Source: a virus
Lineage: Duplodnaviria > Heunggongvirae > Uroviricota > Caudoviricetes
IMG/VR virus record: IMGVR_UViG_2939147180_000006
Span: 1-54,932 of that record
Direction: 5' to 3' (one strand)
Length of the DNA: 54,932 nucleotides
This document shows, in pieces, positions 9,575 to 46,507 of this stretch (the stretch's first letter is position 1; each line of letters begins with the position of its first letter). A program made the position numbers and the translations under genes. The notes beneath the pieces were generated by a model, which saw only the letters and a list, made by a program, of their open reading frames with translations, was not told the origin of the DNA and did no database searches.

Positions 9575-10254
9575 TTGTCAGATCTCCATATTGAATTGGT
9601 CTGTCGAACATACGCGGGCCGCATTTGCTCGCGGCGGCTTAACAGTCCGGCATTGTCATGATGTAAAACAGTGTTATCGCCCAGGTAAATCATCGCGTGG
9701 CATGGATCTGCACCCTTAAACGGCTGGCGAACAATCACATCACCAGGCTGAATACTTTGCGCGTCAACCATGAAAAACCCGTTCAATGGCAGGTTTTTTA
9801 TGTACAGGTTTTCTCCACGCAGCCACCACCCATCGTGGCGCTCAAAGTCCGGTAGATCCACGCCGCAAAGGTGATAGGCGTCACGAAAAAGCGAGTAGCA
9901 ATCTGTTTTCCCGTGTTCAAATTTACGGCCTAACAGGTGCGCTACCGGGCGGAATTTTCTTACCCTGCCACCGGAACATAAAAACCACGGTAGGCCGGAA
10001 ATAACCTGCTGTTGTCGATCCCGTGCTGACAATACCAATGAATCGTTAGTATGTGAGTGAAAAACGGCTGTTATAACGCCTAATTCGTCAGCTTTGATAT
10101 AATCGTCAGGCGAGATTTTAAAGCTGTTGTGCGGCGTTTCAGACACGTTTAAACACGGGTAAAAATAATCGTTATCTATCACCAGCCCGCATACTTCCTC
10201 GTCAGGGTGGGCCGCTGCATAGCGAATCATTTTATCTTCAATCGCCATAATCAA
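9517..10254 (-). CDS. K: Tail assembly protein K homolog (JAB/MPN plus NlpC/P60-like)
   Basis: 245 aa; EEVCGLV...HSHTNDS JAMM-like motif; position between L and I. Confidence 0.8.
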   Translation of the reverse strand: MIMAIEDKMIRYAAAHPDEEVCGLVIDNDYFYPCLNVSETPHNSFKISPDDYIKADELGVITAVFHSHTNDSLVLSARDRQQQVISGLPWFLCSGGRVRKFRPVAHLLGRKFEHGKTDCYSLFRDAYHLCGVDLPDFERHDGWWLRGENLYIKNLPLNGFFMVDAQSIQPGDVIVRQPFKGADPCHAMIYLGDNTVLHHDNAGLLSRREQMRPAYVRQTNSIWRSDKCSNLDLRAIFEDITARCV

Positions 10255-10955
10255 CCCACCTTGCTGGATCCTGGGAAACAGGAAATTGGTAACGGATTAG
10301 GACGCGGAAAACGCAAACGGCAACCGCTTAGGCGGTGGCTGCATTTATCCAGCTTCGGATCACTGGTTGGATCGTCTTTGTCAGTAGCTACGGGGCCGCC
10401 ACTGTATCTGCAACCGTCGCCGCGATATTGCCACTGGCAAACGTCAGCGAGAATTGTGCGCCCAGGGATAACCGCTTTATCTGCATCAATTGGCGTTGAC
10501 AGTTCATATTGCACCTGGTCCGCTGTTTCTTCGCTCATCGCTTCAACGACGTAAAAAGATACAGCCTCAATAGATGGATCCGCATCTGGATTGCCGTTAG
10601 GGAAATTAACAGCATCCAGGTATTTTACTTCCACCTGGCGGCGCGTAACTTTCATTCCTCGCAGGTCGTTGAAATCGTTATTCATCCCCGTAATGAGTCC
10701 GCCAATGTTGGCAACAACCATCTGCGGGCGAGAATAAACCCCCTCGTTTTTCATTTCGAAGCCAGTTGCCTCAATCGGGTAGCTGTTGTAGGTAACACCC
10801 TTCCAGATAACCGGGCCGTAATAGCCATTCGCGCCGGAATGGAAGCGGATAACCTCGCCACCAAGGGGCGTGAGGTCTAATTCAAACAAGTCAATTACCG
10901 CGCCGACTCCGGCATCGACGGAATCAATAATCATTTCTGTAGGTATGCTGCGCAT
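10251..10955 (-). CDS. L: Minor tail protein L homolog
   Basis: 234 aa; segments TGFEMKNEGVYSRPQMVVANIGG and VTRRQVEVKYLDAVNFPNGN resemble lambda L; C-terminal Cys cluster. Confidence 0.8.
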   Translation of the reverse strand: MRSIPTEMIIDSVDAGVGAVIDLFELDLTPLGGEVIRFHSGANGYYGPVIWKGVTYNSYPIEATGFEMKNEGVYSRPQMVVANIGGLITGMNNDFNDLRGMKVTRRQVEVKYLDAVNFPNGNPDADPSIEAVSFYVVEAMSEETADQVQYELSTPIDADKAVIPGRTILADVCQWQYRGDGCRYSGGPVATDKDDPTSDPKLDKCSHRLSGCRLRFPRPNPLPISCFPGSSKVG

Positions 10956-11083
10956 TTTTTCACCTTGTCATTTTGTGATCGCCGTCACGATAAATCATAC
11001 CAAAACGGTTGATCGCGATTTTTACAATATGTATATTGTACTCAAAAGGAAGCATGGTTAACAAAATGGCGCGGAGGTGTGAA

Positions 11084-11239
11084 ATGGATGATAAGGTGTG
11101 GATGTTGAAGGTGTTCCTTACGGATGGCAGGGAAATGACTGTGGCCCAGTATAAAGATGAAGGCGAGGCACTTGCCGACGCGCTATTGCTCGCTGAAGAC
11201 GAACGCGTTTTGGGGTACAGGATCGAACCTGTCAAATGA
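11084..11239 (+). CDS. Hypothetical small acidic protein (51 aa), first gene of opposite-strand moron operon
   Basis: GGAGG RBS 6 nt upstream of ATG at 11084; table ORF 11009..11239 trimmed to RBS-supported start. Confidence 0.45.
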   Translation: MDDKVWMLKVFLTDGREMTVAQYKDEGEALADALLLAEDERVLGYRIEPVK

Positions 11240-11251
11240 GAGGTTAACGAA

Positions 11252-11602
11252 ATGCAAAAATATAGTTTAGAGGTATGGACTGATAAATGTGAATGGGAAC
11301 GCATGGGCCTGTTTGACACATATGATGCTGCGCGTGACGAAGGTCGTGAATTACTTCGCTGTTGGTCTAACGCTCGTGATTTTGTTATTACTCCTGTACC
11401 AGTGCCGGATAAGGTGGAAGACATGAACCCGAAAGATATTAACTTTAACGTCAATGTTGATTTTGCTGATTCTATGGATCAGTCTTGCCCTGGTGAAATA
11501 CACGCAAAAGGTTTCCCGGCTGACGATCCAGAAGCAAAACGCGAATACGTAAAAGCGGCGAAAGATTTCTGCATAGATAACCTGGGCGCATTCGATAAAT
11601 AA
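11252..11602 (+). CDS. Hypothetical acidic protein (116 aa), moron operon
   Basis: ORF with GAGAGG RBS; 12-nt spacing from upstream gene; no recognisable motif. Confidence 0.5.
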   Translation: MQKYSLEVWTDKCEWERMGLFDTYDAARDEGRELLRCWSNARDFVITPVPVPDKVEDMNPKDINFNVNVDFADSMDQSCPGEIHAKGFPADDPEAKREYVKAAKDFCIDNLGAFDK

Positions 11603-11611
11603 GGCGGCAAC

Positions 11612-11875
11612 ATGGGGAGGAGCAATCACGGCGATTATGTGTACACGTTGAAACAGGCCGCCCGCCTCGTCGGTTATCATGAACACGAATTTATTGATTT
11701 GCTGATTGAGCGCGGGATACTGTACCAGGTCTGTTTAACACTGTACCCAAAAGCGAAATACCTACAGGAAAAGTTATTCATCATCATGACGGATGAAAAC
11801 CAGGTAAATCATTCATTCGTTACTGATAAAGGCGTCAATTATCTGCGTGATAACTTACAGGACTGTATATGTTAA
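11612..11875 (+). CDS. Hypothetical protein (87 aa) with possible HTH segment
   Basis: ORF 9 nt after previous stop; segment YTLKQAARLVGYHEHEFIDLLIERGIL looks helix-turn-helix-like (inference). Confidence 0.45.
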   Translation: MGRSNHGDYVYTLKQAARLVGYHEHEFIDLLIERGILYQVCLTLYPKAKYLQEKLFIIMTDENQVNHSFVTDKGVNYLRDNLQDCIC

Positions 11876-12072
11876 AGTACGACGGTCAAAAAATGGTTAG
11901 GTTTACAGGTTTTGCTAAAGGTAACAATAGAGAATTAACAGAATATTACAGTTTAAATATTGGTGACGTTTACCGCGTGGAAATATGTCTGCCTTCAATT
12001 AATTCTTTAATAATTATAAATAAAGAAAATCAAGGCGTGCTTGTTACATTTAACGAAGTGGAGTTACCTTAA
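11869..12072 (+). CDS. Hypothetical protein (67 aa), moron operon
   Basis: ORF overlapping previous stop by 7 nt (coupled). Confidence 0.4.
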   Translation: MLKYDGQKMVRFTGFAKGNNRELTEYYSLNIGDVYRVEICLPSINSLIIINKENQGVLVTFNEVELP

Positions 12073-12162
12073 TCAATAAAGCGACGAAGTGATTGAAAAT
12101 GTTTTGGTAGTGGCTGGCGCGATTGCCATCGTTTATGCCTTTACGAGTTAATGGGGTGAATC

Positions 12163-12300
12163 ATGAAAGTCGAAGTTTTAGCACTAATTGCAATGGGCTT
12201 GATCGTCTTCGGTGTTCACGCTGCTGGTTGGGACTGGGCGGCAATAGCAAACAACATGGCGCACGCTCACCCAATGAGTTTGCTGTATATTCACTACTAA
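12163..12300 (+). CDS. Small hydrophobic membrane peptide (45 aa)
   Basis: Manually translated: MKVEVLALIAMGLIVFGVHAAGWDWAAIANNMAHAHPMSLLYIHY; below the track size cutoff; followed directly by terminator. Confidence 0.4.
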   Translation: MKVEVLALIAMGLIVFGVHAAGWDWAAIANNMAHAHPMSLLYIHY

Positions 12301-12304
12301 CAAG

Positions 12305-12334
12305 AAAAACCCCGCGCGAAGCGGGGTTGTTTTT
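12305..12334 (+). terminator. Rho-independent terminator (bidirectional) ending the L-M moron operon
   Basis: ccccgc-gcgaa-gcgggg hairpin followed by TTGTTTTT; A-run on the other side. Confidence 0.65.
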
Positions 12335-12530
12335 ATGCGCCATCAATCAGAAATAAAACTTCCTTCCCTTCCCTGGATCTGCACCCAACGTACCCATCGC
12401 CAACGTCGTGTAAATACCATATATCGCCGTTGTCAGCTTTTACAGTAAGGTCGTTGATCTCATAGTCGTCAAACAATGTAAAAGCGTCAGTTTTGTCAAC
12501 TACACAAGTCCCGTACATATCAACCCCCAT
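12333..12530 (-). CDS. Hypothetical protein (65 aa) immediately downstream of M
   Basis: ORF start overlaps M stop; no counterpart in lambda at this position. Confidence 0.35.
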   Translation of the reverse strand: MGVDMYGTCVVDKTDAFTLFDDYEINDLTVKADNGDIWYLHDVGDGYVGCRSREGKEVLFLIDGA

Positions 12531-12883
12531 TAGCCGACAACTTGCTCAAATGTTGCGTTTAGCGTGTATACAGGCCCATCTTTGGTCATGCTCCAGCTAC
12601 GGCAAACAAAAAGCCTTTGCACGTTATCCATTGATGGCGACCAGTAAAAAGCCTCGACAGCGCCGCGCGCCCTCAAGAATGCTTCTGCCTGGATCGCCAC
12701 GTTCCCTCCATCACCACATCCCGCGCTACTGCCTTTAAAAACCAGGGTGTAGCTATCAAGTAATGTGTTGATACCTTTTGCCTGCCTTTGCTCATAACCA
12801 TCACCAAGTTTAACGACTGACACATTTGGTTCCCTGGTCACGCTGTAGCTTCTTTGCGGCGTCCATCTGAAAACTTCCGGCAT
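12530..12883 (-). CDS. M: Minor tail protein M homolog
   Basis: 117 aa; FRW...LGDGYEQRQ...FEQVV resemble lambda M. Confidence 0.7.
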   Translation of the reverse strand: MPEVFRWTPQRSYSVTREPNVSVVKLGDGYEQRQAKGINTLLDSYTLVFKGSSAGCGDGGNVAIQAEAFLRARGAVEAFYWSPSMDNVQRLFVCRSWSMTKDGPVYTLNATFEQVVG

Positions 12884-13053
12884 GATTCCCCCTATAAGTT
12901 ACATATTGCATACATCTTTACGCGCTTCTACGCGAAAAATGAGAACTTTGTCACAAGAATTATACCCAGTTTACGAAATGGCTTCACACATGACGTGCCA
13001 AGTTGTATATAGAAATCAAGAAGAGAGAGCAGTACAAGCAAAGGAGGTCAAAT

Positions 13054-13209
13054 ATGGAACGCTATGTGGTTGTAATGCTGAACAAAGCATTCGAACAGGT
13101 GGAAGTTGCGATTGTGAAGGGATTTGATGATGCATTCAAATACGGTCAATTCATGATGAATGCAAAAGAAGATGAATACCGTGATTTCTTCCTGAAAGTG
13201 GTCAACTGA
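13054..13209 (+). CDS. Hypothetical protein (51 aa), second moron operon
   Basis: AAGGAGG RBS upstream of ATG at 13054 (table ORF 13003..13209 trimmed). Confidence 0.45.
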   Translation: MERYVVVMLNKAFEQVEVAIVKGFDDAFKYGQFMMNAKEDEYRDFFLKVVN

Positions 13210-13229
13210 TTGATTGCGTGGGGTGAGTT

Positions 13230-13484
13230 ATGAAATTGGTGGCGATTGGCAAAAACCTGAAAGCACAGAAAAACGCCCAGGACCGGATAATCAAAAAGGG
13301 CAAGTCTTTATTAAATGCTTTCCTGAAAAAAGAGGCCAACCCCAAAAAATTACGCGATGGCTACGGTTATAAATTTGACATCAACCCCGATTGGCGGTTA
13401 TTCAGCGAAGATTTAAAGATGTGGTTAATTATTGACCATCTGGAATACAACCGCCACTGTGGAGTAAAAGGGGCACATAAATGA
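13230..13484 (+). CDS. Hypothetical basic protein (84 aa)
   Basis: ORF with GGGGTGAG RBS; lysine-rich. Confidence 0.45.
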   Translation: MKLVAIGKNLKAQKNAQDRIIKKGKSLLNAFLKKEANPKKLRDGYGYKFDINPDWRLFSEDLKMWLIIDHLEYNRHCGVKGAHK

Positions 13485-13603
13485 GGTGAAATATGGATGA
13501 CGATAAATTCACCTGGAGGGATATCTGGAACATCTGGCAGGTGATGTTTGCTCGCAGCTATATAGCAAGAAACGGAAGATTGTGATTTGCGGAGGAAAAT
13601 AAA

Positions 13604-13780
13604 ATGAAAAACCCGGCAAATAAAAGCAATGTAAAACGTATGGCATGGATCGTAAAATGGATGGATAGCAAAGGCGAGACATACAAAGAACCGTTTTTCA
13701 GATACACAGATGCCGTATTCGCAAGAAGTGTAAGAGGAGGGAAAATTGAAAGAGGATATACAAGTTTTGAGAATAACTAA
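13604..13780 (+). CDS. Hypothetical protein (58 aa)
   Basis: Manually translated MKNPANKSNVKRMAWIVKWMDSKGETYKEPFF...; GGAGG RBS 8 nt upstream; followed by terminator. Confidence 0.4.
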   Translation: MKNPANKSNVKRMAWIVKWMDSKGETYKEPFFRYTDAVFARSVRGGKIERGYTSFENN

Positions 13781-13785
13781 AAGAT

Positions 13786-13810
13786 AACCCCGGCATTGTA
13801 CCGGGGTTTT
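13786..13810 (+). terminator. Rho-independent terminator (bidirectional) between moron 2 and tape measure gene end
   Basis: aaccccgg-cattgta-ccggggtttt hairpin with T-run. Confidence 0.6.
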
Positions 13811-13812
13811 GT

Positions 13813-16161
13813 TTATTTGCGGCGCGGTTGCAACATTCCTCCCGGTCGTTGCGATTCCCTTGCCATCATTTTCATTGCTACGCGTTCCATCGTCTGTTCA
13901 AGTCTGCGACTGTCTTCGTCACTAAATCCGTTTGTGGTCTGTACGGTGATGTTAACAGGCATATTGATGCCGCCACCATTGAAGAGATCACGGCCAGGAA
14001 TTACTCTACCATTCTCGCCGGGAATCATATACTGACGCCCGTTGCTCGTCTGGAATAGTTCCGGGATCCCGTGCTCACCTACGCGATACAGACTTCCACC
14101 ATTCACAGAACCACCATTATAACGCCCGCCGCCAAAAATTGATGTTGCCAGCGACATGATCGCAGAAAGTGCCGCAGCACCAGCCGCAGCCCAGCTACCA
14201 CCAGTTGACGCAGCCGTTGCAGCCGCAGCCGGGGCCGCCGCAGCCGCAATCTGGCCTTGCGCCGCCACAGCGCCAGCAGTTGTACTTGCCTGGGTAGCCT
14301 TGCTTTGCGTTTCCATCATCAATTGATCTGCTATCCAGTTAGCGGCAATCTCTGATAGTTTGTTACCAACGGTATTGAGGATACTGCTTCCCAGGTTGGC
14401 GAAAACCTCGCTTAATGATTGAGTACCGTTTAACAGGCCGGTGAGCGCATTACCCATGCCACCTTTTAGGCCACTAACACAAGCACCAATCAGGCCGTTT
14501 GTGTCGCTTTGTGCCTGCCATTGTTCCCATTTCAGATCTCGGATCTGTTGTTCGTATTCCAATTGCGCCTGTCTCTGTTGCGCCTCTGTAGCGCCCAGGT
14601 CCAATAGCATTTGTTTTCTTACAGCCCATTCATTTTGCGCCTGCTTGATTGGGTCAATTTCGCCCTTAAGCTGGTCCATCGGGCTAACTATGTGGTCCCA
14701 TTTGTCGCGTAGCTCATCAACGGGGATTTGCGCCAATTCGTCCTTCAGTTCCTTTCCTATCCCTTTCTGCGCGGCCTTGTACTCAAGGAGGGTTATTTTG
14801 CCCTGGGCGAATGCAGCATCAATGGCCTTGCCGTTCTCTAATGCTTTGCGCATAGCGGCGGCGTCCTTGTTGTATTGGTCAGATACGTTTATGCCTTCAT
14901 CGCCAAGCCGATCAGCTTCAGATTTCTTGTCTTTTTTGCCATTTTTCCCTTTTTTGGGCTTACCAACTGGCTGATCGAATCCTGTAATCTTGCCGTCGTC
15001 AGCCTCACCCTGTTTCTGCATGAACTCGTCATAGGCTGCTGTGGCTTTTTCTATGTCATTCTTGAATGTCATAAATTTGCCAATGGTGGGGCCGAATTTC
15101 TTTTCGTTGTTGCTGTTTAGCTCTTCCTTGCGCTTGTCAATGATCTCCTTCATCCATTTGTAGCCATCCATTAGCGCTTTGATTGGCGTCACCATTCTGA
15201 TGATTTCTTCCGCCACCTCACCCGCCTTAATAGCAACATCGTCAAACATGTCGATGAACTCACTACCAGCGGTTTTCAGTGTATTGAAACAGGTTGCGGC
15301 GAATTTTGCGCCTTTACCTAACCCCTCAACGCCACCAGTGATTAAGTCTATTGCTGACACAACGCCGTCAGATATGCCGAAAAGATCATCAAGCTGCTCG
15401 ACAAGTCCCATCACCTCCACTTTAAGCTCGTTAAAGGCCATGCCGGATGTGCGCGGCAACTGTGCGAACTTCTCGTTTGTTTCCTGCGTGGCGGCCTGGA
15501 TCGCGTTGAGCATCCTTTCAGCCGTGATCTTGCCGTCCAGCATTTCGGCGCGGAACTGGCCCATTGACAGCCCCATTTGGCGGGCCATTTCCTGTATGAT
15601 TGTTGGGGTATTGTCACGTATTGAGTTAAATTCTTCAGCCTGCAACACGCCAGCATCAATAGCCTGGCGGAACTGGCGCATGGAGTTTGATAGTTGTTCC
15701 GCAGACACGCCGCCCAGGTTGCCAAGTTTTTGCAGCGTGCTGACCAGGTTGAGTACCTGGCCTTCTGTGGCGGATGTGTTTTTTAGCGATATGGCAAGAC
15801 CTTGCCACAGGTCGCCAGTATCCTTAAGGCTTTGCCCTGTTTCTTTTGATATATCTTTCAGTCTGTTGAAAACACGTTCCGTGGCCTCCGCTTCACCTGT
15901 AAGCAGTTTGATTTTTACGCGAAGCATTTTAGCTTGTTCCGCCATGTCAATAAACTGGCGTACAGCCTCCGCAGCAAGTAGCAAATGGATAACCCTGGAC
16001 AGTGCTTTGATTGAAGTCTTAAGCGTGTTCACCTGGCGGTCAGCGCGTTTTGCGCCACGCTCGATGCTGTCAAAAGCCTGGTCTGCCTGTCGTTGAGCAA
16101 CGAGAAGTTGACCAGTTTTTGCATCAACTTCGTAATAAATTGTGCCTAAACTAGTTGCCAT
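13813..16161 (-). CDS. H: Tail tape measure protein (lambda H-like)
   Basis: 782 aa, coiled-coil-rich, Gly/Ala-rich segment and C-terminal GGGR...NGG region as in lambda H; position between chaperone and M. Confidence 0.8.
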   Translation of the reverse strand: MATSLGTIYYEVDAKTGQLLVAQRQADQAFDSIERGAKRADRQVNTLKTSIKALSRVIHLLLAAEAVRQFIDMAEQAKMLRVKIKLLTGEAEATERVFNRLKDISKETGQSLKDTGDLWQGLAISLKNTSATEGQVLNLVSTLQKLGNLGGVSAEQLSNSMRQFRQAIDAGVLQAEEFNSIRDNTPTIIQEMARQMGLSMGQFRAEMLDGKITAERMLNAIQAATQETNEKFAQLPRTSGMAFNELKVEVMGLVEQLDDLFGISDGVVSAIDLITGGVEGLGKGAKFAATCFNTLKTAGSEFIDMFDDVAIKAGEVAEEIIRMVTPIKALMDGYKWMKEIIDKRKEELNSNNEKKFGPTIGKFMTFKNDIEKATAAYDEFMQKQGEADDGKITGFDQPVGKPKKGKNGKKDKKSEADRLGDEGINVSDQYNKDAAAMRKALENGKAIDAAFAQGKITLLEYKAAQKGIGKELKDELAQIPVDELRDKWDHIVSPMDQLKGEIDPIKQAQNEWAVRKQMLLDLGATEAQQRQAQLEYEQQIRDLKWEQWQAQSDTNGLIGACVSGLKGGMGNALTGLLNGTQSLSEVFANLGSSILNTVGNKLSEIAANWIADQLMMETQSKATQASTTAGAVAAQGQIAAAAAPAAAATAASTGGSWAAAGAAALSAIMSLATSIFGGGRYNGGSVNGGSLYRVGEHGIPELFQTSNGRQYMIPGENGRVIPGRDLFNGGGINMPVNITVQTTNGFSDEDSRRLEQTMERVAMKMMARESQRPGGMLQPRRK

Positions 16162-16200
16162 GATTTAACCTCATACGAAATGTGATCCATGTCTCTATTT

Positions 16201-16241
16201 TATACAAAATGGCTTCATTTCAACGAGTACATTTTGTATAA
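16201..16241. promoter_or_regulatory. Inverted-repeat motif TATACAAAATGG-N17-CATTTTGTATAA (candidate operator/promoter element)
   Basis: Read directly; the same half-site recurs in several other intergenic regions. Confidence 0.4.
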
Positions 16242-16318
16242 AGAAGATAAAGGAAAGGGATAGAGCGAAAGGATTTAAAAGGCCGGATTAACCGGAGGAA
16301 GCAAAAGAGGATAAGAAA

Positions 16319-16405
16319 ATGAAAAACTACTACCGACCCAACGAGCATGAGCGTTATACCGACTTCATCGAAGAAATGCTTAAAGCACTTAAAAATAAAA
16401 ACTAA
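16319..16405 (+). CDS. Possible small ORF (28 aa) at head of third moron operon
   Basis: AAGAGG RBS then ATG; MKNYYRPNEHERYTDFIEEMLKALKNKN; very short, uncertain. Confidence 0.25.
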   Translation: MKNYYRPNEHERYTDFIEEMLKALKNKN

Positions 16406-16417
16406 GCGGGGTGAGTT

Positions 16418-16768
16418 ATGAAACGGTTAATCAAAGCGGCGATGATGGCGGTAATGGTATGTTTAGCATTCAACGCCAACGCAGATAACAAGATTGATAA
16501 AGCGGAGCATGAATGCGCATTTGCCGCAGAAATATACGACTTAAAATACGGTGACGGTATGGGATACCTTGAGATTGTATATGACGCAGCTTGCAGGTAT
16601 AGGGCGGTAGTCCCGTTCCTTGGTGATGAAATTGCCGAAAAATTTAAACTGCACGAAAAATACAAAGATTTGGTAGACGGCATAAATGAACCTGAGCTAC
16701 TCAAAGCGGTTCGTGACGGCGAAGTTAAAGGATTCGCAATCCACCACAGAGTAAAGGCAGGCGTGTAA
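16418..16768 (+). CDS. Hypothetical secreted/periplasmic protein (116 aa) with N-terminal signal peptide
   Basis: N-terminus MKRLIKAAMMAVMVCLAFNANA has n/h/c-region signal-peptide character; RBS GGGGTGAG. Confidence 0.5.
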   Translation: MKRLIKAAMMAVMVCLAFNANADNKIDKAEHECAFAAEIYDLKYGDGMGYLEIVYDAACRYRAVVPFLGDEIAEKFKLHEKYKDLVDGINEPELLKAVRDGEVKGFAIHHRVKAGV

Positions 16769-16876
16769 ATGGAAACAATCAAAACTGTTATAGATGTATA
16801 TATTACAGCATGGTTAGCATTTAATATAATGGCTGTGCTAGTGCTGGCAATGACAACAGAAGATAAACGTAATTAA
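16769..16876 (+). CDS. Small membrane peptide (35 aa)
   Basis: TAAATG stop-start overlap with the previous gene; hydrophobic core ITAWLAFNIMAVLVLAM. Confidence 0.35.
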   Translation: METIKTVIDVYITAWLAFNIMAVLVLAMTTEDKRN

Positions 16877-16886
16877 GGAGTTCATC

Positions 16887-17189
16887 ATGGAAATGGTAAT
16901 TTTCTTTTGCGGATTCGTGGGAACTATGATTGTTGCCCAGAAAAGACATCTTAATATGCTCATGGCATTCATTGGCGCACTGATTTTTTGGCCTGCCGTA
17001 TTGATTTACGCACTGTGCGTTAACAAAAGGATGTTTAAACACTACGTCGATGCGGTGACTTTCGTAAGCATGGAGTTCCCTAACGCAACTGACGTACAGA
17101 AAGCACAGGTTGCAACTTACCTTTACGATAACGTGTACGATATTCATGACCTGGATGAGGCAAGATGCAGATTTGCAGCATACAAATAA
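16887..17189 (+). CDS. Hypothetical membrane protein (100 aa, two predicted TM segments)
   Basis: AGGAG RBS; hydrophobic segments VIFFCGFVGTMIV and LMAFIGALIFWPAVLIYAL. Confidence 0.5.
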   Translation: MEMVIFFCGFVGTMIVAQKRHLNMLMAFIGALIFWPAVLIYALCVNKRMFKHYVDAVTFVSMEFPNATDVQKAQVATYLYDNVYDIHDLDEARCRFAAYK

Positions 17190-17197
17190 AGATAAAG

Positions 17198-17222
17198 GCC
17201 CGGTTAATTCCGGGCTTTTTCT
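17198..17222 (+). terminator. Rho-independent terminator ending third moron operon
   Basis: gcccgg-ttaatt-ccgggc hairpin followed by TTTTTCTT. Confidence 0.65.
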
Positions 17223-17923
17223 TGCTCGCGTTTTTTCATCAATTCCAGCACCCTTTTAGCTGCCTCCATTTGCTCCTCATAATCACGTTTATTTATGTGA
17301 ACGCTTGGCTTACTTACCTCGTTTCTTTCGTCTGGTGGCGTTTTAGCGCGTACAGCTGCCCTGTATCCGGTCATTGTCATGCCCCACGCTTCTGACTCAG
17401 ATAACCCCAGGTGAGCAACGGCAGAATAAACAAACTCGAGGATATCAAATGTCGGCTTGTACTCGCCTTTCTGTGTTGCGCCCGTGTCCTCCTCTGGACC
17501 GTCACCAATTAAACCGTGATACATGCAGTGTTGCGCCAGTGTGATAACGTCACTGGTAGGCATCAATCCGGGTTTTAGTCTCAACTTACCCGAAGGAGTA
17601 AACCTGCATTCGCCCAATAACGGGCCTATTTCTTCCTCTGAGCAACATCTCAGTATGTGGATGGATGTTTGCACTAACTCACCATAACAACGCGCCATAA
17701 TGCGATTACGGAGGTCTGGATCCGTTGGCAAACGCTGTGGATATTTACCACCGTGCACAGTTGCGAAATATTCAACCAGTTCCCTGTCACTGCCGATTTT
17801 AGCCATTGCAGCAAAGCAGGGATTGAATACATACCGCCTGCCATTGACTACAGCCGCAAATTGTCCGGCTCGAACATGGATCATAGATGTCACCTTAAAA
17901 ATAAAGGGGCCAAACGGCCCCAA
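17204..17923 (-). CDS. Putative tail assembly chaperone (G/GT position)
   Basis: 239-aa ORF between major tail and tape measure genes; assignment by position only; true start may be internal. Confidence 0.4.
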   Translation of the reverse strand: MGPFGPFIFKVTSMIHVRAGQFAAVVNGRRYVFNPCFAAMAKIGSDRELVEYFATVHGGKYPQRLPTDPDLRNRIMARCYGELVQTSIHILRCCSEEEIGPLLGECRFTPSGKLRLKPGLMPTSDVITLAQHCMYHGLIGDGPEEDTGATQKGEYKPTFDILEFVYSAVAHLGLSESEAWGMTMTGYRAAVRAKTPPDERNEVSKPSVHINKRDYEEQMEAAKRVLELMKKREQEKARN

Positions 17924-23055: not shown

Positions 23056-24011
23056 TCTTCGCCATATTTAGCGTGCGCAACCTTGTAATTCTCCTGCGCC
23101 CGCTCAAGGATTCGTTTGTTTAATATATTACCGTCTTCGTCAACTAATACGGTAATAGTGCTGCATTTGCAGTTAATTGAATTAGGGGATCTACTCCACC
23201 ATTCGCGCTGCTCTTCTATGGTGTACGTTTTCCCGTGCCGCTGTGCATGTGACAGCCTGGTAGTCGGTGACAATGCCGAAATGTGCATTTGCATAGTGCG
23301 CAAATTAAGCTCTTCTGTCGCCGCTTCTGCCTCATCCATACGCGCTGTGCGCAACGCTGTACATATTTCAGTACGGGCAATACGTTTGCACCTGTATAGC
23401 GGTAATTGCGTTTCCTGCTGCAATGTACGCGCTATTTCAAGTGGGTTTAAGCCGCGAGCCATGCCTTCAGTTAATCGGCGGGCCATATCCTTCTTGATCT
23501 GTGCGGTAAGCCCACGCATCTCTTCAAATACACGGGTACGAACCAGGGCAAGACGCGTGCGATAGGTCTGACTGGTTAATACCGCCGACACTTCGGGGTA
23601 AGCCCTGGAATATGTGACTGACTGGTTAGCTAGGTTGGCATATTCCTGTGAAGTGCCTCGCTGATACGCCACCTTCACGTATTCCTGCCAGAACCAGAAG
23701 TCTTCCGGGTCTGTTAACTCGAATATCTCATCAATCATGTCGCTGGCGTCTTCCAGCAAATCATGTAATTCGTCGATGTAGATCTGGAAAGTGTATTTCT
23801 TATTAACAGCCAGGCTATATTGTATTCTGTCCAGTATGGCGATATACGGATCCGCAACTTTCTTCAGGCAGGCTTTAAAACGCTTGATAGCACCGGACCT
23901 TAACTTCCCTGTCATGGTCGGGTCTTCGGTGTTAGATGGCATTATCGCGGCTGGAGGTATTCGCCTGATTATCTTCTTCACCTTCATCATCGTCTTCCTC
24001 TTCCGTTTCAA
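23046..24011 (-). CDS. Head morphogenesis protein, Mu F-like / SPP1 gp7-like
   Basis: 321 aa downstream of portal; segment IARTEICTALRTARMDE resembles the MuF-family core; start uncertain (may be at 23915). Confidence 0.6.
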   Translation of the reverse strand: MKRKRKTMMKVKKIIRRIPPAAIMPSNTEDPTMTGKLRSGAIKRFKACLKKVADPYIAILDRIQYSLAVNKKYTFQIYIDELHDLLEDASDMIDEIFELTDPEDFWFWQEYVKVAYQRGTSQEYANLANQSVTYSRAYPEVSAVLTSQTYRTRLALVRTRVFEEMRGLTAQIKKDMARRLTEGMARGLNPLEIARTLQQETQLPLYRCKRIARTEICTALRTARMDEAEAATEELNLRTMQMHISALSPTTRLSHAQRHGKTYTIEEQREWWSRSPNSINCKCSTITVLVDEDGNILNKRILERAQENYKVAHAKYGEDWE

Positions 24012-25323
24012 CTACACTGGCAGGGCCATCGTATCCGGCAGCCTCGCGGATCTCGTCACCGCTAAATATTTCTTCACCAGTAGCCAAACAAGCCTGATTG
24101 ATTTGTGCCATTTTGTATGCCGCCTCCAGTAGTTCAGCTTTGGTCATGGCGTTCAGGTCGTCCCATATAACTGATACGTCAATTGGCATACTGATAAGGC
24201 GGAGATCTGCCATCTTGCGGAATAGATCCTCAAGCTCACCGCCGATTTCCTCCCTGCGGGTCATACAGCGGCTGTTGAAGTAGCGGAGGTCTTCGGTTGA
24301 TGCGCGTTCGCCCTGCTGGTTCCCAACCAGGATGCGGGTCGGAATATCAATACCAGCGGCGGCGGTTTGCAGGTTGACGTCATAGGTTGCTGACGGGTCA
24401 GATACGGCAGTCACCAGTGGGCTTACTGTTGCCCCCTGTAATGCCATCATCACGTCGTTACCCTTATTCATTTCAGCCGCTGCCTCATTGAATCTTTCGC
24501 GTAACTCTGTAACGTCGCAATCGTATGTTGCAGCAAGGGAACGGAAGTCAATCTCTTTATCGAACGAGATAGCAAGCTGGCGGGCGGCGTTTTTCAGGAA
24601 TGATTCACCGCTACCCCCCTCCACCTTCTCAAGTGACACAAAGGCGTTATAGGACGGTTCAAGGAAAGCGATGGCATCATCAGAATAGTCGCCAAAGATA
24701 AATATGCGGTCAGGGTGGATCTTTCTGGCAATGGTTTTACTGTTTATGCGCTCTTTGTATTCCCACCATGTAGGCAGGCCATAGTTTTCACTGTTCGGGT
24801 CTTCTTCAAATTCCTTCGGTGTAAGAGCGCCAGCCCATACCGGGGTAAATTTGGCAACACCTACGCCTTTCGTCACTGGCTGATCCCACGGCTGGTTATC
24901 TCTGACATGAATCAACAGGCCAGCATAACGACCAATGAGGCGGCGGCGGTCACATTCGGCAATGATGCGCCAAAATCTGTTATCAAACTGTTTCTTGATT
25001 TCTCTTTCCCAGGATGTTTCTGTTTCCGCTTTCTCGTCTTCTGTTCCTTCAATCATCGTTGGCCTGGTGCGCCAGCACGTCGTGATGATTTTCTCAATAG
25101 CACCGTGAGCAATACCGCCGCGACGATACAGTTTGTACAGGTCGTCATACGTGATCTCTTCTTTGAATCCGTATTCGCTCCACGCAGCATCACGTTTGGC
25201 ATCTATCCCCATAGTGAACGGGTGCGCTGCGGCATAGCGGGCATATGCCGCCTGGCGTTGTGACAAGGCAGCATTAACCGCCAATTCTAAATTGGATGGC
25301 ATAATGTTTACTCCTGAATACAT
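23932..25323 (-). CDS. Portal protein
   Basis: 463 aa between terminase large subunit and MuF-like gene; acidic C-terminal tail. Confidence 0.6.
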   Translation of the reverse strand: MYSGVNIMPSNLELAVNAALSQRQAAYARYAAAHPFTMGIDAKRDAAWSEYGFKEEITYDDLYKLYRRGGIAHGAIEKIITTCWRTRPTMIEGTEDEKAETETSWEREIKKQFDNRFWRIIAECDRRRLIGRYAGLLIHVRDNQPWDQPVTKGVGVAKFTPVWAGALTPKEFEEDPNSENYGLPTWWEYKERINSKTIARKIHPDRIFIFGDYSDDAIAFLEPSYNAFVSLEKVEGGSGESFLKNAARQLAISFDKEIDFRSLAATYDCDVTELRERFNEAAAEMNKGNDVMMALQGATVSPLVTAVSDPSATYDVNLQTAAAGIDIPTRILVGNQQGERASTEDLRYFNSRCMTRREEIGGELEDLFRKMADLRLISMPIDVSVIWDDLNAMTKAELLEAAYKMAQINQACLATGEEIFSGDEIREAAGYDGPASVVETEEEDDDEGEEDNQANTSSRDNAI

Positions 25324-31876: not shown

Positions 31877-31940
31877 ATATATAACAAAACGGCACTGCCG
31901 AAACAATGCCATTTTGTATACATTGTGATAAAGATCACAT
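31877..31940. promoter_or_regulatory. Regulatory region: inverted motif TATATAACAAAACGG-N16-CCATTTTGTATA plus CRP-consensus palindrome TGTGATAAAGATCACA
   Basis: Read directly; TGTGA-N6-TCACA at 31925..31940 matches the CRP core consensus. Confidence 0.45.
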
Positions 31941-35105: not shown

Positions 35106-35298
35106 TATCTTTATTCCGTCCGTAAATATGTACTGGCTCAACTGGTACGGCTGGCAATTCACCATCATTTAACGCGCTTGCCATACCCAATATTAATCGT
35201 GCTTCCGCACCAGTGACTTTCTTACACCATGCACCGCCAGTTTTATCTTCGAACAAGATAACAGCAAACTGATCGTTTATTTCCAGCTTATCCATCAT
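35092..35298 (-). CDS. Hypothetical protein (68 aa)
   Basis: Track ORF; 4-nt overlap with the Q-like gene. Confidence 0.35.
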   Translation of the reverse strand: MMDKLEINDQFAVILFEDKTGGAWCKKVTGAEARLILGMASALNDGELPAVPVEPVHIYGRNKDNENN

Positions 35299-36017
35299 TC
35301 ACCCCGCGTCACTCTTTTAATTTCGTTATCTGCCAGCGCCTCTTCTTTGAACAATTCAGCAATGGCGTCTTCATAGAAAGCCCGGTACTTTTTCCACCAT
35401 GTTGATCGGCTTACCGGAAAAACAAGCTGATTAACCGCCTGCCGTACAAGATCTACAGGGAAACGCGAGTACCCGCGCCCGCCGCAATGCTGGCACGTTT
35501 TGAACACTGGCATTTCCGCCGCTTCACTGGCTGCTTTATCCGGTACTTCGCCACGGCCCTTGCATTGTTTACAATGATTGCGAACTGTCCCATGCCCCTT
35601 GCATTTCTTACAAAGGTGTTTTTCTCCGTAGTCGTCAAACGTAAATTTATATCCGCCGCACTCCATACAAGTTTTTTCCGTCGCGGCACTCTGGCAATAA
35701 TCCCGAAACGCGAAAACGGCAACAAGAATAATGAGATCATTGCGTTTGGCCTCGTCCAGTTCCATAACGTATTCATAATCTTTTGCCATAGCCCTTAAAC
35801 GCTCTGTAAGCAAAACTACGGCCTTATGTTTTTCGGCTTGTGATAGTTCCATCTTCCCTAAAAAAGCGCTGTAACCAAGCTCTACGCGCGATTGCGCCAT
35901 GCCTGCTGCAGTTAGTGCATCCGTAGTATTAAGAGCATCCGGGGACGTGCCCCGGCTTTCATCTGACAAACGAGGTGATTTTGGGAAGTGGAATTTCAGA
36001 ATTGATTCCAGATTCAT
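35295..36017 (-). CDS. Putative late antiterminator Q-family protein with DnaJ-like CxxCxGxG zinc-finger repeats
   Basis: 240 aa directly downstream of ninG and rusA (canonical Q position); repeats CMECGGY, CKKCKGHG, CKQCKGRG, CQHCGGRG; family assignment from memory, unverified. Confidence 0.45.
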   Translation of the reverse strand: MNLESILKFHFPKSPRLSDESRGTSPDALNTTDALTAAGMAQSRVELGYSAFLGKMELSQAEKHKAVVLLTERLRAMAKDYEYVMELDEAKRNDLIILVAVFAFRDYCQSAATEKTCMECGGYKFTFDDYGEKHLCKKCKGHGTVRNHCKQCKGRGEVPDKAASEAAEMPVFKTCQHCGGRGYSRFPVDLVRQAVNQLVFPVSRSTWWKKYRAFYEDAIAELFKEEALADNEIKRVTRGE

Positions 36018-37396: not shown

Positions 37397-37473
37397 AATG
37401 CTCTCTCCTTTTCAGGTGATTTATACGCATTTCAGCGCTGCCGGATTTTTAAAGAGCATTTGTTTGCTTGAAG

Positions 37474-37552
37474 TATACAAAATGGATACGTCATAACAAG
37501 CTGAAAAGCGCCATTATGTGATCCGTATCACACAATGACGCCATTTTGTAAA
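37474..37552. promoter_or_regulatory. Regulatory region: TATACAAAATGG and CCATTTTGTAAA in inverted orientation flanking CRP-consensus palindrome TGTGATCCGTATCACA
   Basis: Read directly; TGTGA-N6-TCACA at 37517..37532; intergenic between C5-MTase-like gene and ninG block. Confidence 0.45.
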
Positions 37553-37554
37553 CT

Positions 37555-41028: not shown

Positions 41029-41127
41029 CTTGTTTTCCTCCGTGCCGTAAACATTTTGATTTCAGTTTACAAAACGGATTCGCGATCGCAACACAAAACG
41101 TATATTTATGCGATCGCAACCACAATG

Positions 41128-44795: not shown

Positions 44796-45267
44796 GATCT
44801 GATCTCCTTATATCCTTGATGATACTTAATAAAAAATCATCTTCGTTAATTGCCGCACTTCCAGCGGCTGACCAGATTGTTAAAGAATGGCTTAACATCT
44901 TTCAACTAATCCCGCAATCATCGCCGTTTCCGGTGTGACCCTGCTCACTCCAAGCAAGCTGACTTGTCGCCTTGCGTGCGGTTTCGTGGGGGATGTAACG
45001 CTTTAAACACCCCATGCGCCTTGTTATCAGTGCCGCTTTCGGTCCCCCATCGGGGAGTTACTCCACGGTTGACAAGGTGTTAAGCCTGATTTTTAAAGTG
45101 CCAGGAAGGTGCTTTTTTGTTTACTGCCTCCTTCCTTTGATTCGCAATATACGCCCTGTGATATGTCGAGTCAATCCATTTTGTATACTTTTTAAAAAAA
45201 TTTTATATCTTATTGATATTTAAATGATAAAACTGTTTTTTTGTTTACGTTTTGGCGTTTTTGGTGG

Positions 45268-45298: not shown

Positions 45299-45946
45299 TT
45301 ATGGCAGGTTTACGATCTTCGCATCCACTACCACGCCTATGATTTTAGATTCTGGATTCATAGGGATTGGCGGATACAGCGGATTGAGAGAACGTAAAAG
45401 CCTTTGACCTCCATCAATAACAAGCTGTTTAAACGTAGGAGTTTGCCCTTCCTCCAGTTGGGCTATAACCAGTTTTCCGTCAATAGCTGGCGCGTGCGGA
45501 TCGACAAGTATCATCGTCCCCGCTGGTATACTCAATCCTTGCGGCGCGTTCATTGATTCTCCTTTAGCCACCAGCCAATAACTATCATCTGAACAAATAA
45601 CGCTAGTTGTAACGTGTGGTAATGTTGATCGCCTTGCATCTTCCATATTGTTTACTGCATCCTTCCAGTCAACAACCGGGTAACTGCCTAAATCACGCGG
45701 TGGCGCTCCCGGTAACGTGTTAGAAACAGAATCATCTATGACCATCCCATCATGTGTGACAGTGAATTGCCGACGCCCAAGCGCCCGCATAATCCGCGCA
45801 ATATCTTCAAGATTTGGCTCACGGCGACCGTTCAGCCAGTGCGACAAGCCGCCTTTTGTTATCCCCATGAGATCAGCCAGTGAATCCTGACTCATGCCCT
45901 GCGCCCGCATGAGTTGTTTTGCCAAGTCATACCATTTTGTTTTCAT
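45299..45946 (-). CDS. cI: CI/C2-type prophage repressor (HTH_XRE plus S24 LexA-like peptidase)
   Basis: 215 aa; N-terminal HTH QDSLADLMGITKGGLSHWLNG; C-terminal GESM...FKQL Ser/Lys dyad; C-terminus KIIGVVVDAKIVNLP as in P22 C2. Confidence 0.85.
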   Translation of the reverse strand: MKTKWYDLAKQLMRAQGMSQDSLADLMGITKGGLSHWLNGRREPNLEDIARIMRALGRRQFTVTHDGMVIDDSVSNTLPGAPPRDLGSYPVVDWKDAVNNMEDARRSTLPHVTTSVICSDDSYWLVAKGESMNAPQGLSIPAGTMILVDPHAPAIDGKLVIAQLEEGQTPTFKQLVIDGGQRLLRSLNPLYPPIPMNPESKIIGVVVDAKIVNLP

Positions 45947-45949
45947 GTC

Positions 45950-46100
45950 GCTACCCTATAAGCTAAAAAAGTTTGATGCAAGTCACAAAATGTATTTTTC
46001 AATCCTTGACCTGTTAACGCCATTCTGTAAACTTGCAGACAAGGTAAGTCCATACTTGCAAGGATGCAAGAAAAAAGATAATGGAAAGCACAAAAGGAAC
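45950..46100. promoter_or_regulatory. Immunity-region operator/promoter region (OR/PR/PRM equivalent) with CTTGCA/TGCAAG palindromic half-sites
   Basis: Divergent intergenic region between repressor and rightward operon; repeated CTTGcagaCAAG, aCTTGCAAGg, gaTGCAAG; TTGACC -35-like hexamer. Confidence 0.4.
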
Positions 46101-46252
46101 ATACCTTAAAAGCTCTTTAAAAATCCGGTGTCGCTGCGAAGCGAAAAACAAATATCACGCAACGGCGGGATCTGTTGAGCGGTCAGTCACTGCTATCTAA
46201 TGCTAATTGGATGCCCGCCAGCGCGTTCACTCTAACCATAGGAGAAAACACG

Positions 46253-46507
46253 ATGAGCACGAACATGATTAACAAAGCATGGAACGTAAAACTTAACAGC
46301 CCGATTCAAAAACTAGTTTTAATCTCCCTTGCTGAGACGGCGGATAGCCAGGGGCGGACAAGCGTATCACGCGAAGAAGTAGCAAAAATGTGTGAACTTC
46401 CTGTTCATACGGTACATGATGCCTTCGCCGCATTAATTAGCAAAGGGTTTGTTTGCCGTATTGATGCGTTTAGTGGTGTCTATGTAGTTATGTTGCCGGA
46501 GGAATGA
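46253..46507 (+). CDS. Winged-helix DNA-binding protein, first gene of rightward early operon
   Basis: AGGAG RBS and ATG at 46253 (table ORF has an N-terminal extension); HTH-like segment TSVSREEVAKMCELPVHTVHDAFAALISKGFV; not lambda-Cro-like. Confidence 0.45.
   Translation: MSTNMINKAWNVKLNSPIQKLVLISLAETADSQGRTSVSREEVAKMCELPVHTVHDAFAALISKGFVCRIDAFSGVYVVMLPEE

Follow-up and report, generated by a model that had tools for sequence, protein, structure and literature searches.

The stretch of viral DNA analyzed here (54,932 nucleotides, positions 1 to 54,932 of the IMG/VR record IMGVR_UViG_2939147180_000006, hereafter "the window") carries a cassette of small plus-strand genes at positions 11084–12334, which lies antisense within the late tail operon at the junction of the tail genes M and L. 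This cassette is probably a conserved accessory operon of the moron type that belongs to the mEpimmI phage group. Its main role may lie in the prophage, in conflict between phages or in modulation of the host, and we propose this function only tentatively.

As judged by sequence identity, the window is a prophage of Escherichia coli strain 127 and a member of the mEpimmI (mEp021) group. The region 10900–12600 is 100% identical to the chromosome of this strain (NZ_CP023377.1) and shares approximately 90% identity with the phages mEp021, mEp515, mEp010, mEp013, mEp044, and mEp554. The mEpimmI phages are temperate coliphages that are non-lambdoid yet dependent on Nus factors, and their prophages are reportedly as common as those of lambdoid phages in E. 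coli of the human gut (PMC11893012). The comparisons below cover 46 related loci, consisting of 43 viral contigs retrieved via the second cassette gene (g2), the phages mEp021 and mEp515, and strain 127.

Gene content and conservation of the cassette

The five plus-strand open reading frames (ORFs) listed in the original prediction, g1 (11084–11239, 51 amino acids [aa]), g2 (11252–11602, 116 aa), g3 (11612–11875, 87 aa), g4 (11869–12072, 67 aa), and g5 (12163–12300, 45 aa), are also present as coding sequences in the RefSeq record NZ_CP023377.1, and their homologues are annotated in GenBank for mEp021 and mEp515. Each ORF has the expected ribosome-binding site, a Shine-Dalgarno-like sequence upstream of its start (GGAGG, GAGAGG, AAGG, AGGA, and GGGGTGA for g1 to g5 in order), and g3 and g4 overlap by 7 nt. 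The ratio of nonsynonymous to synonymous polymorphism (pN/pS) among the related loci is 0.34 for both g1 and g2, 0.13 for g3, 0.19 for g4, and 0.28 for g5, compared with 0.07–0.13 for the tail genes L, M, and K. Because the ratios of the five ORFs lie between 0.13 and 0.34 across related loci, all five are protein-coding genes under purifying selection. The antisense ORF at 10960–11454 is not a gene, as had been suspected, because several stop codons interrupt it in most of the related loci.

The count of five holds for the larger ORFs only, as a sixth gene has to be added. This unannotated mini-ORF (12090–12152, plus strand) encodes a hydrophobic peptide of 20 aa (MIENVLVVAGAIAIVYAFTS) and is conserved in approximately 15 loci, from which the eight distinct sequences analyzed differ mostly by synonymous changes (pN/pS 0.14). 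It starts with GTG in the window and with an ATG located further upstream in other loci. The six products span 2–13 kDa, and the largest does not exceed 13 kDa. No known RNA from Rfam was found in the region 10800–17400.

Gene content divides the cassette into a core, g1-g2-g3, and an optional part, consisting of g4, the mini-ORF, and g5. The core lies between L and M in all 46 loci except for contig L043, in which g1 is swapped for another gene, and the promoter region is likewise present in essentially all of them. The gene g4 occurs in 9 of the 46 loci and g5 in 32, the latter in two forms of 45 aa and 38 aa. Further insertions include a gene of 77–81 aa between g2 and g3 in six loci, a 58-aa ORF after g5 in two loci, and an HNH endonuclease between g2 and g3 in a single locus. 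This last gene (contig L024, 4357–4842) is of the homing type and appears to consist of two separate ORFs. Other HNH genes of this type are dispersed over the tail region of the relatives, including one between I and J in mEp021 and mEp515 (L001, 1066–1632) that is absent from the window.

The G+C content is 51% for g1, 43% for g2, 42% for g3, 31% for g4, and 47% for g5, and only g4 deviates clearly from its neighbors (L and M 50–51%; whole window 46%). A weak match to phrog_14327 is the sole family match of g4, which is predicted to be swappable cargo. The mini-ORF peptide and g5 are predicted to be small membrane peptides; g5 consists of one hydrophobic helix and a short tail (grand average of hydropathy 0.93), in agreement with its earlier description as a peptide with a single transmembrane segment.

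Insertion at the M/L junction and its transcription signals

The tail genes of the window are encoded on the minus strand in the order of the tip fibre gene J, I, K, L, M, and the tape-measure gene. The tail tip gene L (10251–10955, 234 aa), which carries the annotation phage minor tail protein L, shares 46% identity with its lambda counterpart, and the tail tip gene M (12530–12883, 117 aa), annotated as phage tail protein, corresponds to a gene in related contigs that matches PF05939 (Phage_min_tail). The cassette is located between L and M as originally described, but it is not their sole separator, because M is followed by a conserved late-strand gene of 65 aa (12333–12530, minus strand). 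This gene matches phrog_3249 at 2e-22, encodes an acidic product, and occurs in all related loci with a pN/pS of 0.23. It abuts the cassette terminator, lies outside the cassette, and is annotated in mEp021 (gp70) but missing from the RefSeq annotation of strain 127.

The closest tail modules outside the mEpimmI group are those of the Erwinia phage vB_EhrS_49 and the Salmonella phage ES18. In vB_EhrS_49 (L 69% identical), M and L overlap with nothing between them, and in a lambda record the match to L also overlaps the annotated M gene. ES18 (L 72% identical) has an opposite-strand gene, gp25, between M and L and another, gp22, between the tape-measure gene and M, both annotated as "possible moron" by the ES18 authors. 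The two junctions are known cargo slots because ES18 carries inserts there that are unrelated to those of the window. The window fills both slots and a third one, between the tape-measure gene and a DUF6246 gene.

Morons were reportedly defined from the phages HK97 and HK022 by Juhala et al. and Hendrix et al. in 2000. As in lambdoid and ES18-type morons, the cassette looks like an additional transcription unit, with a predicted promoter and a terminator to itself, that separates late genes lying side by side in related phages. At the genomic level the moron interpretation of the original prediction is upheld by the opposite-strand insertion between M and L, the promoter-like region, and the terminator, but the cassette is not a sporadic and recent insert. 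Unlike those morons, its core is fixed across the whole phage group and only g4 is clearly foreign in composition. It also differs from the ES18 morons in being an operon of six genes instead of a single gene, and its cargo is unrelated to gp22, gp24, and gp25, as a comparison of the ES18 morons with the cassette revealed no homology to any of its genes.

The location inside the tail gene cluster could also suggest that the products are accessory proteins of the virion or of tail assembly whose genes happen to be inverted, or that the genes are functionless, decaying remnants. We regard this as extremely improbable, since the genes run against the tail genes, between a promoter-like region and a terminator of their own, show no similarity to tail genes, and are found in neither of the related tail modules, those of vB_EhrS_49 and ES18. 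Purifying selection and intact frames in 46 genomes exclude decay, and with it the possibility that the ORFs are degraded fragments of tail genes.

The arrangement also resembles that of the phi80 gene taiEcA, which is oriented against the Q-dependent late operon that it interrupts and was described as part of a "noncontiguous operon"; the lysogen produces the TaiEcA protein, in amounts that fall upon expression of Q (PMC11364771). The same layout is found in the window, with M and the 65-aa gene on one side of the opposite-strand unit and L-K-I-J on the other, all on the minus strand, and a Q-like antiterminator is annotated at 35295–36017. In contrast to the cassette, which lies between tail genes and has six products of 2–13 kDa not known to be linked to tail assembly, TaiEcA is a single 26-kDa protein encoded upstream of the packaging genes. 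Moreover, a counter-gene can only be guessed at in the window: the position of the 65-aa gene beside the antisense cassette is comparable to that of the counter-defence gene of the phi80 tai/ati pair, which is pure speculation as to its function.

The 128-bp spacer between L and g1 is nearly invariant and more conserved than the g1 coding sequence. The predicted sigma-70 promoter (11001–11037, plus strand) comprises an CAAAACGG element, a −35 hexamer TTGATC (11009–11014), a 17-bp spacer, and a −10 hexamer TATATT (11032–11037). Both hexamers were detected by a promoter scan and are invariant across related loci, and a CAAAAYGG element abuts the −35 hexamer. The composite pattern CAAAAYGG-(6-8)-(16-18)-TATAWW has five exact instances in the window compared with 0.035 expected (200 shuffles). 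They are located in the present cassette (cassette 1), in the cassette that fills the third slot (cassette 3), downstream of the repressor gene, in front of the small genes that precede the holin gene, and at 41070. The sixth member of this family is the promoter of cassette 2, which occupies the slot between M and the tape-measure gene; this promoter matches the pattern in most relatives. Elsewhere in the window, the promoter family is found at 31878–31939, 37473–37553, 41070–41106, 45146–45183, and 46019–46032, and the promoter of the repressor gene (46019, minus strand) has the same upstream motif.

Upstream of the promoter is a CRP-type site, TGTGATCGCCGTCACG (10974–10989), which agrees with the CRP consensus TGTGA-N6-TCACA at 9 of the 10 core positions, as does the lac CRP site. 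Among 37 distinct L–g1 spacers, the half-sites TGTGA and TCAC are invariant and the central six bases vary, a pattern that would be expected of a site bound by a protein dimer. The window contains seven CRP-type sites compared with 1.57 expected, and two of them are perfect. Both perfect palindromes are located elsewhere: one (31924–31939) is intergenic and approximately 61 bp upstream of the family promoter before the pre-holin small genes, and the other (37517–37532) lies between the NinG and cytosine-methylase genes and is flanked by two inverted copies of the motif GTWWACAAAATGGC.

In class I CRP-dependent promoters, the site is centered near −61.5 or whole helical turns further upstream. 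The cassette promoter resembles promoters of this class, such as lac P1, in having a lac-quality site, TGTGA-N6-TCAC(G), approximately six helical turns upstream of the predicted start and an A-rich element between the site and the −35 hexamer. It differs in that the predicted center is not at −61.5: it lies at about −62.5 from the start predicted from the hexamers and, owing to one extra base, at −63.5 in half of the loci. CRP-type sites are found at −60.5 to −62.5 in three promoters of the family, and cassette 2 has a weaker one at −70.5. From these sequence features, we consider the chances that the cassette promoter depends on CRP to be about even. A phage repressor operator was also considered as a reading of TGTGA-N6-TCACA and rejected: the immunity region has palindromes of another kind, CTTGCA-N4-TGCAAG, and neither a CRP homologue nor a CRP-like protein is encoded in the window. 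The CTTGCA-N4-TGCAAG palindromes lie in the spacer between the repressor gene and a divergent MarR-type gene (45946–46253; e.g., 46053–46068), and are the likeliest repressor operators, which had been left undefined (PMC11893012).

The −10 hexamer is overlapped by an 8-2-8 palindrome, TACAATAT-GT-ATATTGTA (11023–11040), which occurs only once in the window. Related loci retain it, about half of them in perfect form. The minus strand over this palindrome also scores as a promoter (TTGTTA-18-TACAAT), and the palindrome may serve either as an operator or as the symmetrical center of a promoter that fires in both directions. LexA and TyrR boxes were rejected as candidates by inspection, as their half-sites and spacing do not fit. 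Further downstream, the g1 leader contains an invariant sequence, GTTAACAAAATGGC (11057–11070, plus strand), the core of which (AACAAAATGG) is invariant in all loci except for a one-base change in contig L028 and is kept in L043 despite the replacement of g1. GTTAACAAAATGGC is a copy of the motif GTWWACAAAATGGC, which is enriched in the window (20 hits compared with 2.5 expected). This enrichment comes partly from start-codon contexts, and the stricter composite promoter pattern was relied on instead.

At the other end, the strong Rho-independent terminator that had been predicted is located at 12308–12328, with eight pairs (six G-C) and a T-run on both strands. It is a bidirectional intrinsic terminator, with a predicted stability of −17.5 kcal/mol on the plus strand and −16 kcal/mol on the minus strand, and it also closes the late unit of M and the 65-aa gene. 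Related loci keep the hairpin, with a loop whose orientation differs from locus to locus, and the hairpin is annotated as a terminator in mEp021 and mEp515. With a promoter-like region at one end and this terminator at the other, the cassette is very likely an independent transcription unit.

These signals also bear on when the cassette would be expressed. It could be an immediate-early infection operon, in which host polymerase would use the promoter upon DNA entry, g1 and g2 neutralize a host defence or take over a host function and prophage expression is incidental or repressed, a scenario that we consider rather unlikely. The invariant motif at 11057–11070, downstream of the start, could then be a site of repression in the lysogen. 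Against this stand the shared upstream motif of the repressor gene promoter, which is necessarily active in the lysogen, and the terminators that insulate the cassette from both neighbors while it faces into late transcription. Furthermore, the anti-defence genes of temperate phages are usually located in early operons.

Predicted properties of the core proteins

The two acidic products noted in the original prediction are g1 and g2, with isoelectric points (pI) of 4.4 and 4.5, respectively. They match phrog_29559 (7e-24) and phrog_38567 (8e-44), both PHROGs without an assigned function. The AlphaFold model of g2 has a confidence score (predicted local distance difference test) above 90 for residues 1–50, which are arranged in the order strand-strand-helix-strand, and below 60 for residues 57–116. 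The protein consists of a variable N-terminal domain (residues 1–56) and a conserved C-terminal module (57–116), with a pN/pS of 0.44 in the former compared with 0.19 in the latter. Several very different allelic types of the N-terminal domain exist, and in the C-terminal module the residues D62, S74, D76, C79, G87, F88, P89, and F106 show no variation, and H84 and C107 almost none.

As judged from profile comparison by hhalign (E 7e-5, probability 62%), g1 is a paralogue of the N-terminal domain of g2, both being beta-beta-alpha-beta domains of approximately 50 residues. In a divergent lineage without a separate g1, a natural fusion of 172 aa carries two tandem domains followed by the C-terminal module, which argues for g1 and g2 working together.

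Relatives of g2 are scarce. A profile search of 1.84 billion representative proteins yielded only 15 matches, consisting of close relatives, fragments, and low-complexity proteins, and a scan of one genome per bacterial species yielded none. By sequence, neither g2 nor g3 had a significant match among solved structures, and the C-terminal 60 residues of g2 matched nothing known. Stand-alone homologues of the C-terminal module occur in other phages. One of them, of 64 aa, is encoded on contig L047 (6001–6195) amid a long run of small genes without families beside tRNA genes; this phage contig is at least 119 kb long, and the same metagenome yielded many contigs of the mEpimmI type. At the level of fold, the N-terminal domain resembles small DUF7336-like phage proteins (BFVD models) in its strand-strand-helix-strand arrangement of 50–60 residues (Foldseek E 1.8e-3, target TM-scores 0.6–0.8). 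The similarity is one of fold only, as no Pfam sequence match was found for g1, g2 or 27 relatives of g1, and the DUF7336 family is itself without known function. In RefSeq, the acidic and soluble 51-aa g1 is named "transporter," a name that has spread to many E. coli records and is unsupported by any Pfam or NCBIfam model.

Part of this evidence would fit an immediate-early operon as well. The products of g1 and g2 are acidic cytoplasmic proteins of small size; fast diversification, as in an arms race, is seen in g1 and in the N-terminal domain of g2, and the fold of the latter is common to many small DUF7336-like phage proteins. In addition, a stand-alone homologue of the C-terminal module is located in the small-gene block of the phage contig with tRNA genes (at least 119 kb). 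On the other hand, no similarity to known anti-defence proteins was found, with no dedicated anti-defence library searched.

A further alternative is that g1 and g2 form a toxin-antitoxin or abortive-infection pair, in which g1 would restrain g2 via the homologous domain and the C-terminal module, freed by an invading phage or by the loss of g1, would arrest the cell. The layout resembles that of a type II system, with a 51-aa gene, a gap of 12 nt, a 116-aa gene, and a palindrome over the −10 hexamer. The neighboring cassette 2 opens likewise, its 51-aa gene preceding that of a ParE-like toxin (PF24732 at 7e-12). The homology of g1 to the N-terminal domain of g2 and the joining in g2 of a variable putative sensor domain to a conserved putative effector also fit such a pair. 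However, both g1 and g2 are acidic, whereas the neighboring pair has the classical pI values of 4.9 and 9.9, and no toxin, antitoxin or defence model of Pfam, NCBIfam or PADLOC matches either protein. Moreover, the fusion in one lineage would tie the antitoxin permanently to the toxin, and the 51-aa protein of cassette 2 showed no relation to g1 or g2 when compared with both. We therefore regard the toxin-antitoxin interpretation as quite unlikely.

The statement in the original prediction that no product belongs to a recognized family does not apply to g3, which contains a stand-alone ANT/KilAC domain; the statement holds for the other products, as g3 provided the only match to a named family in Pfam, NCBIfam, PADLOC, and PHROGs. 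The match of g3 to ANT/KilAC (PF03374) scores 30.5 bits against a cut-off of 25.3 (E 5e-7) and covers positions 23–106 of the 108 profile positions, and g3 is the most conserved gene of the cassette. Its predicted structure suggests, with medium confidence, a KilAC-only protein with a MerR/Xis-like fold. In passing the Pfam threshold, g3 resembles the ANT/KilAC proteins, such as Ant1 of P1 and AriS of Listeria. The known members have two domains, with an AntA/AntB, BRO-N, pRha or KilA-N domain at the N-terminus, whereas g3 and its homologues (82–87 aa) consist of KilAC alone. At 87 aa and with no N-terminal partner domain, g3 is not a two-domain antirepressor of the Ant/AriS type. In addition, the known members are encoded in the early region, whereas g3 is part of a tail-region moron. 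For a lone KilAC domain, a single activity has been tested, that of Listeria AriS, which in isolation blocks the SOS response (PMC9043618). The mEpimmI prophages are reportedly not inducible by ultraviolet (UV) light, which was attributed to a repressor without a cleavage site (PMC11893012). A contribution of g3 to the lack of UV induction is speculation.

Proposed working of the operon and related cassettes

We tentatively propose that the accessory operon is a module for conflict or host modulation that is expressed in the prophage, with g1 and g2 as a paired binder and effector and g3 as a regulator. Host RNA polymerase would transcribe the cassette without any phage factor, so that it would be on in the lysogen and right after entry of the DNA, and cAMP-CRP may boost its expression, which would then rise when carbon is limiting. 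In the lytic cycle, late transcription that the Q-like protein has modified would pass the terminator and run antisense over the cassette, damping its expression; such read-through would need the Q-like antiterminator because the bidirectional terminator lies in its path. The fast-diversifying pair of g1 and the N-terminal domain of g2 would act together, and the effector part is probably formed by the last 60 residues of g2. The low model confidence of this part may reflect disorder in isolation, and it would most likely bind a partner protein. As a probable regulator, g3 may bind the palindrome over the −10 hexamer or act on the SOS machinery in the manner of the KilAC domain of AriS.

Several observations weigh against this proposal. 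The promoter hexamers have 9 of 12 consensus matches and are of modest quality, and the predicted position of the CRP-type site across promoters and haplotypes (−60.5 to −63.5) is looser than the classical −61.5. The sequence TGTGA...TCACG is also within the leader of the late L mRNA and could serve that transcript. The g1 and g2 alleles recombine freely, in many combinations and without strict co-variation, and the fold matches of the g2 N-terminal domain are generic. The medium-confidence model of g3 was derived from an alignment of eight sequences, and its pI of 6.0 is unusual for a DNA-binding protein. Lastly, the cassette products match none of the known defence or toxin families in Pfam, NCBIfam, and PADLOC 2.0, a release older than the Tai systems, and the genes are without analysis in the mEpimmI paper (PMC11893012). 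The PHROG identifiers and protein accessions of the cassette genes are not mentioned in papers. A more elaborate version, in which the cassette is a catabolite-gated module with g1 and g2 as a sensor-effector pair in which a fast-diversifying beta-beta-alpha-beta heterodimer is joined to a conserved 60-residue effector peptide that arrests an invading phage or a host process, with g3 damping SOS/RecA and thereby adding to the lack of UV induction, and with the three cassettes forming one CRP regulon silenced by late transcription, appears improbable.

Two further antisense cassettes interrupt the late operon. Cassette 2 (12940–13808) is located between M and the tape-measure gene and has a promoter of the same type (12974–13011) and its own bidirectional terminator (13786–13808). 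It encodes a 51-aa protein (13054–13209), a ParE-like toxin (13230–13484; PF24732, E 7e-12; pI 9.9), and a 58-aa protein (13604–13780), and on the basis of these genes it looks like a toxin-antitoxin module with an uncharacterized antitoxin. Cassette 3 (16181–17189) separates the tape-measure gene from the DUF6246 gene. Its promoter (16205–16242) is another member of the family and has a degenerate CRP-type site (16181–16196) centered at approximately −60.5, and its two plus-strand genes (16418–16768 and 16887–17189) have no family matches. Elsewhere in the window, a 456-aa protein encoded at the portal position between the large terminase and a minor head protein (23932–25302, minus strand) is named "anti-CBASS protein Acb1 family protein" in RefSeq, a name that looks doubtful for a product of this length and gene position.

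Morons at these junctions (ES18) and the antisense interruption of a late operon (phi80) were already known, and the cassette genes themselves were deposited and included in PHROGs. What is new is the sixth gene, the paralogy of g1 and g2 as predicted from their profiles together with the natural fusion, the family of promoters with CRP-type sites across three antisense cassettes, and the split into core and optional genes. Current concepts remain unchanged because junction morons and antisense "noncontiguous" arrangements have already been described. The presence of the operon in all 46 genomes examined implies that it is useful to the phage or to the lysogen. If the promoter is truly dependent on CRP, the prophage would link the expression of accessory genes to the carbon status of its host, and the three antisense cassettes would be a compact system in which to study the silencing of lysogen-expressed genes by late transcription. 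The g1/g2 pair and the KilAC-only g3 are small, tractable candidates for new proteins of phage–host or phage–phage interaction.

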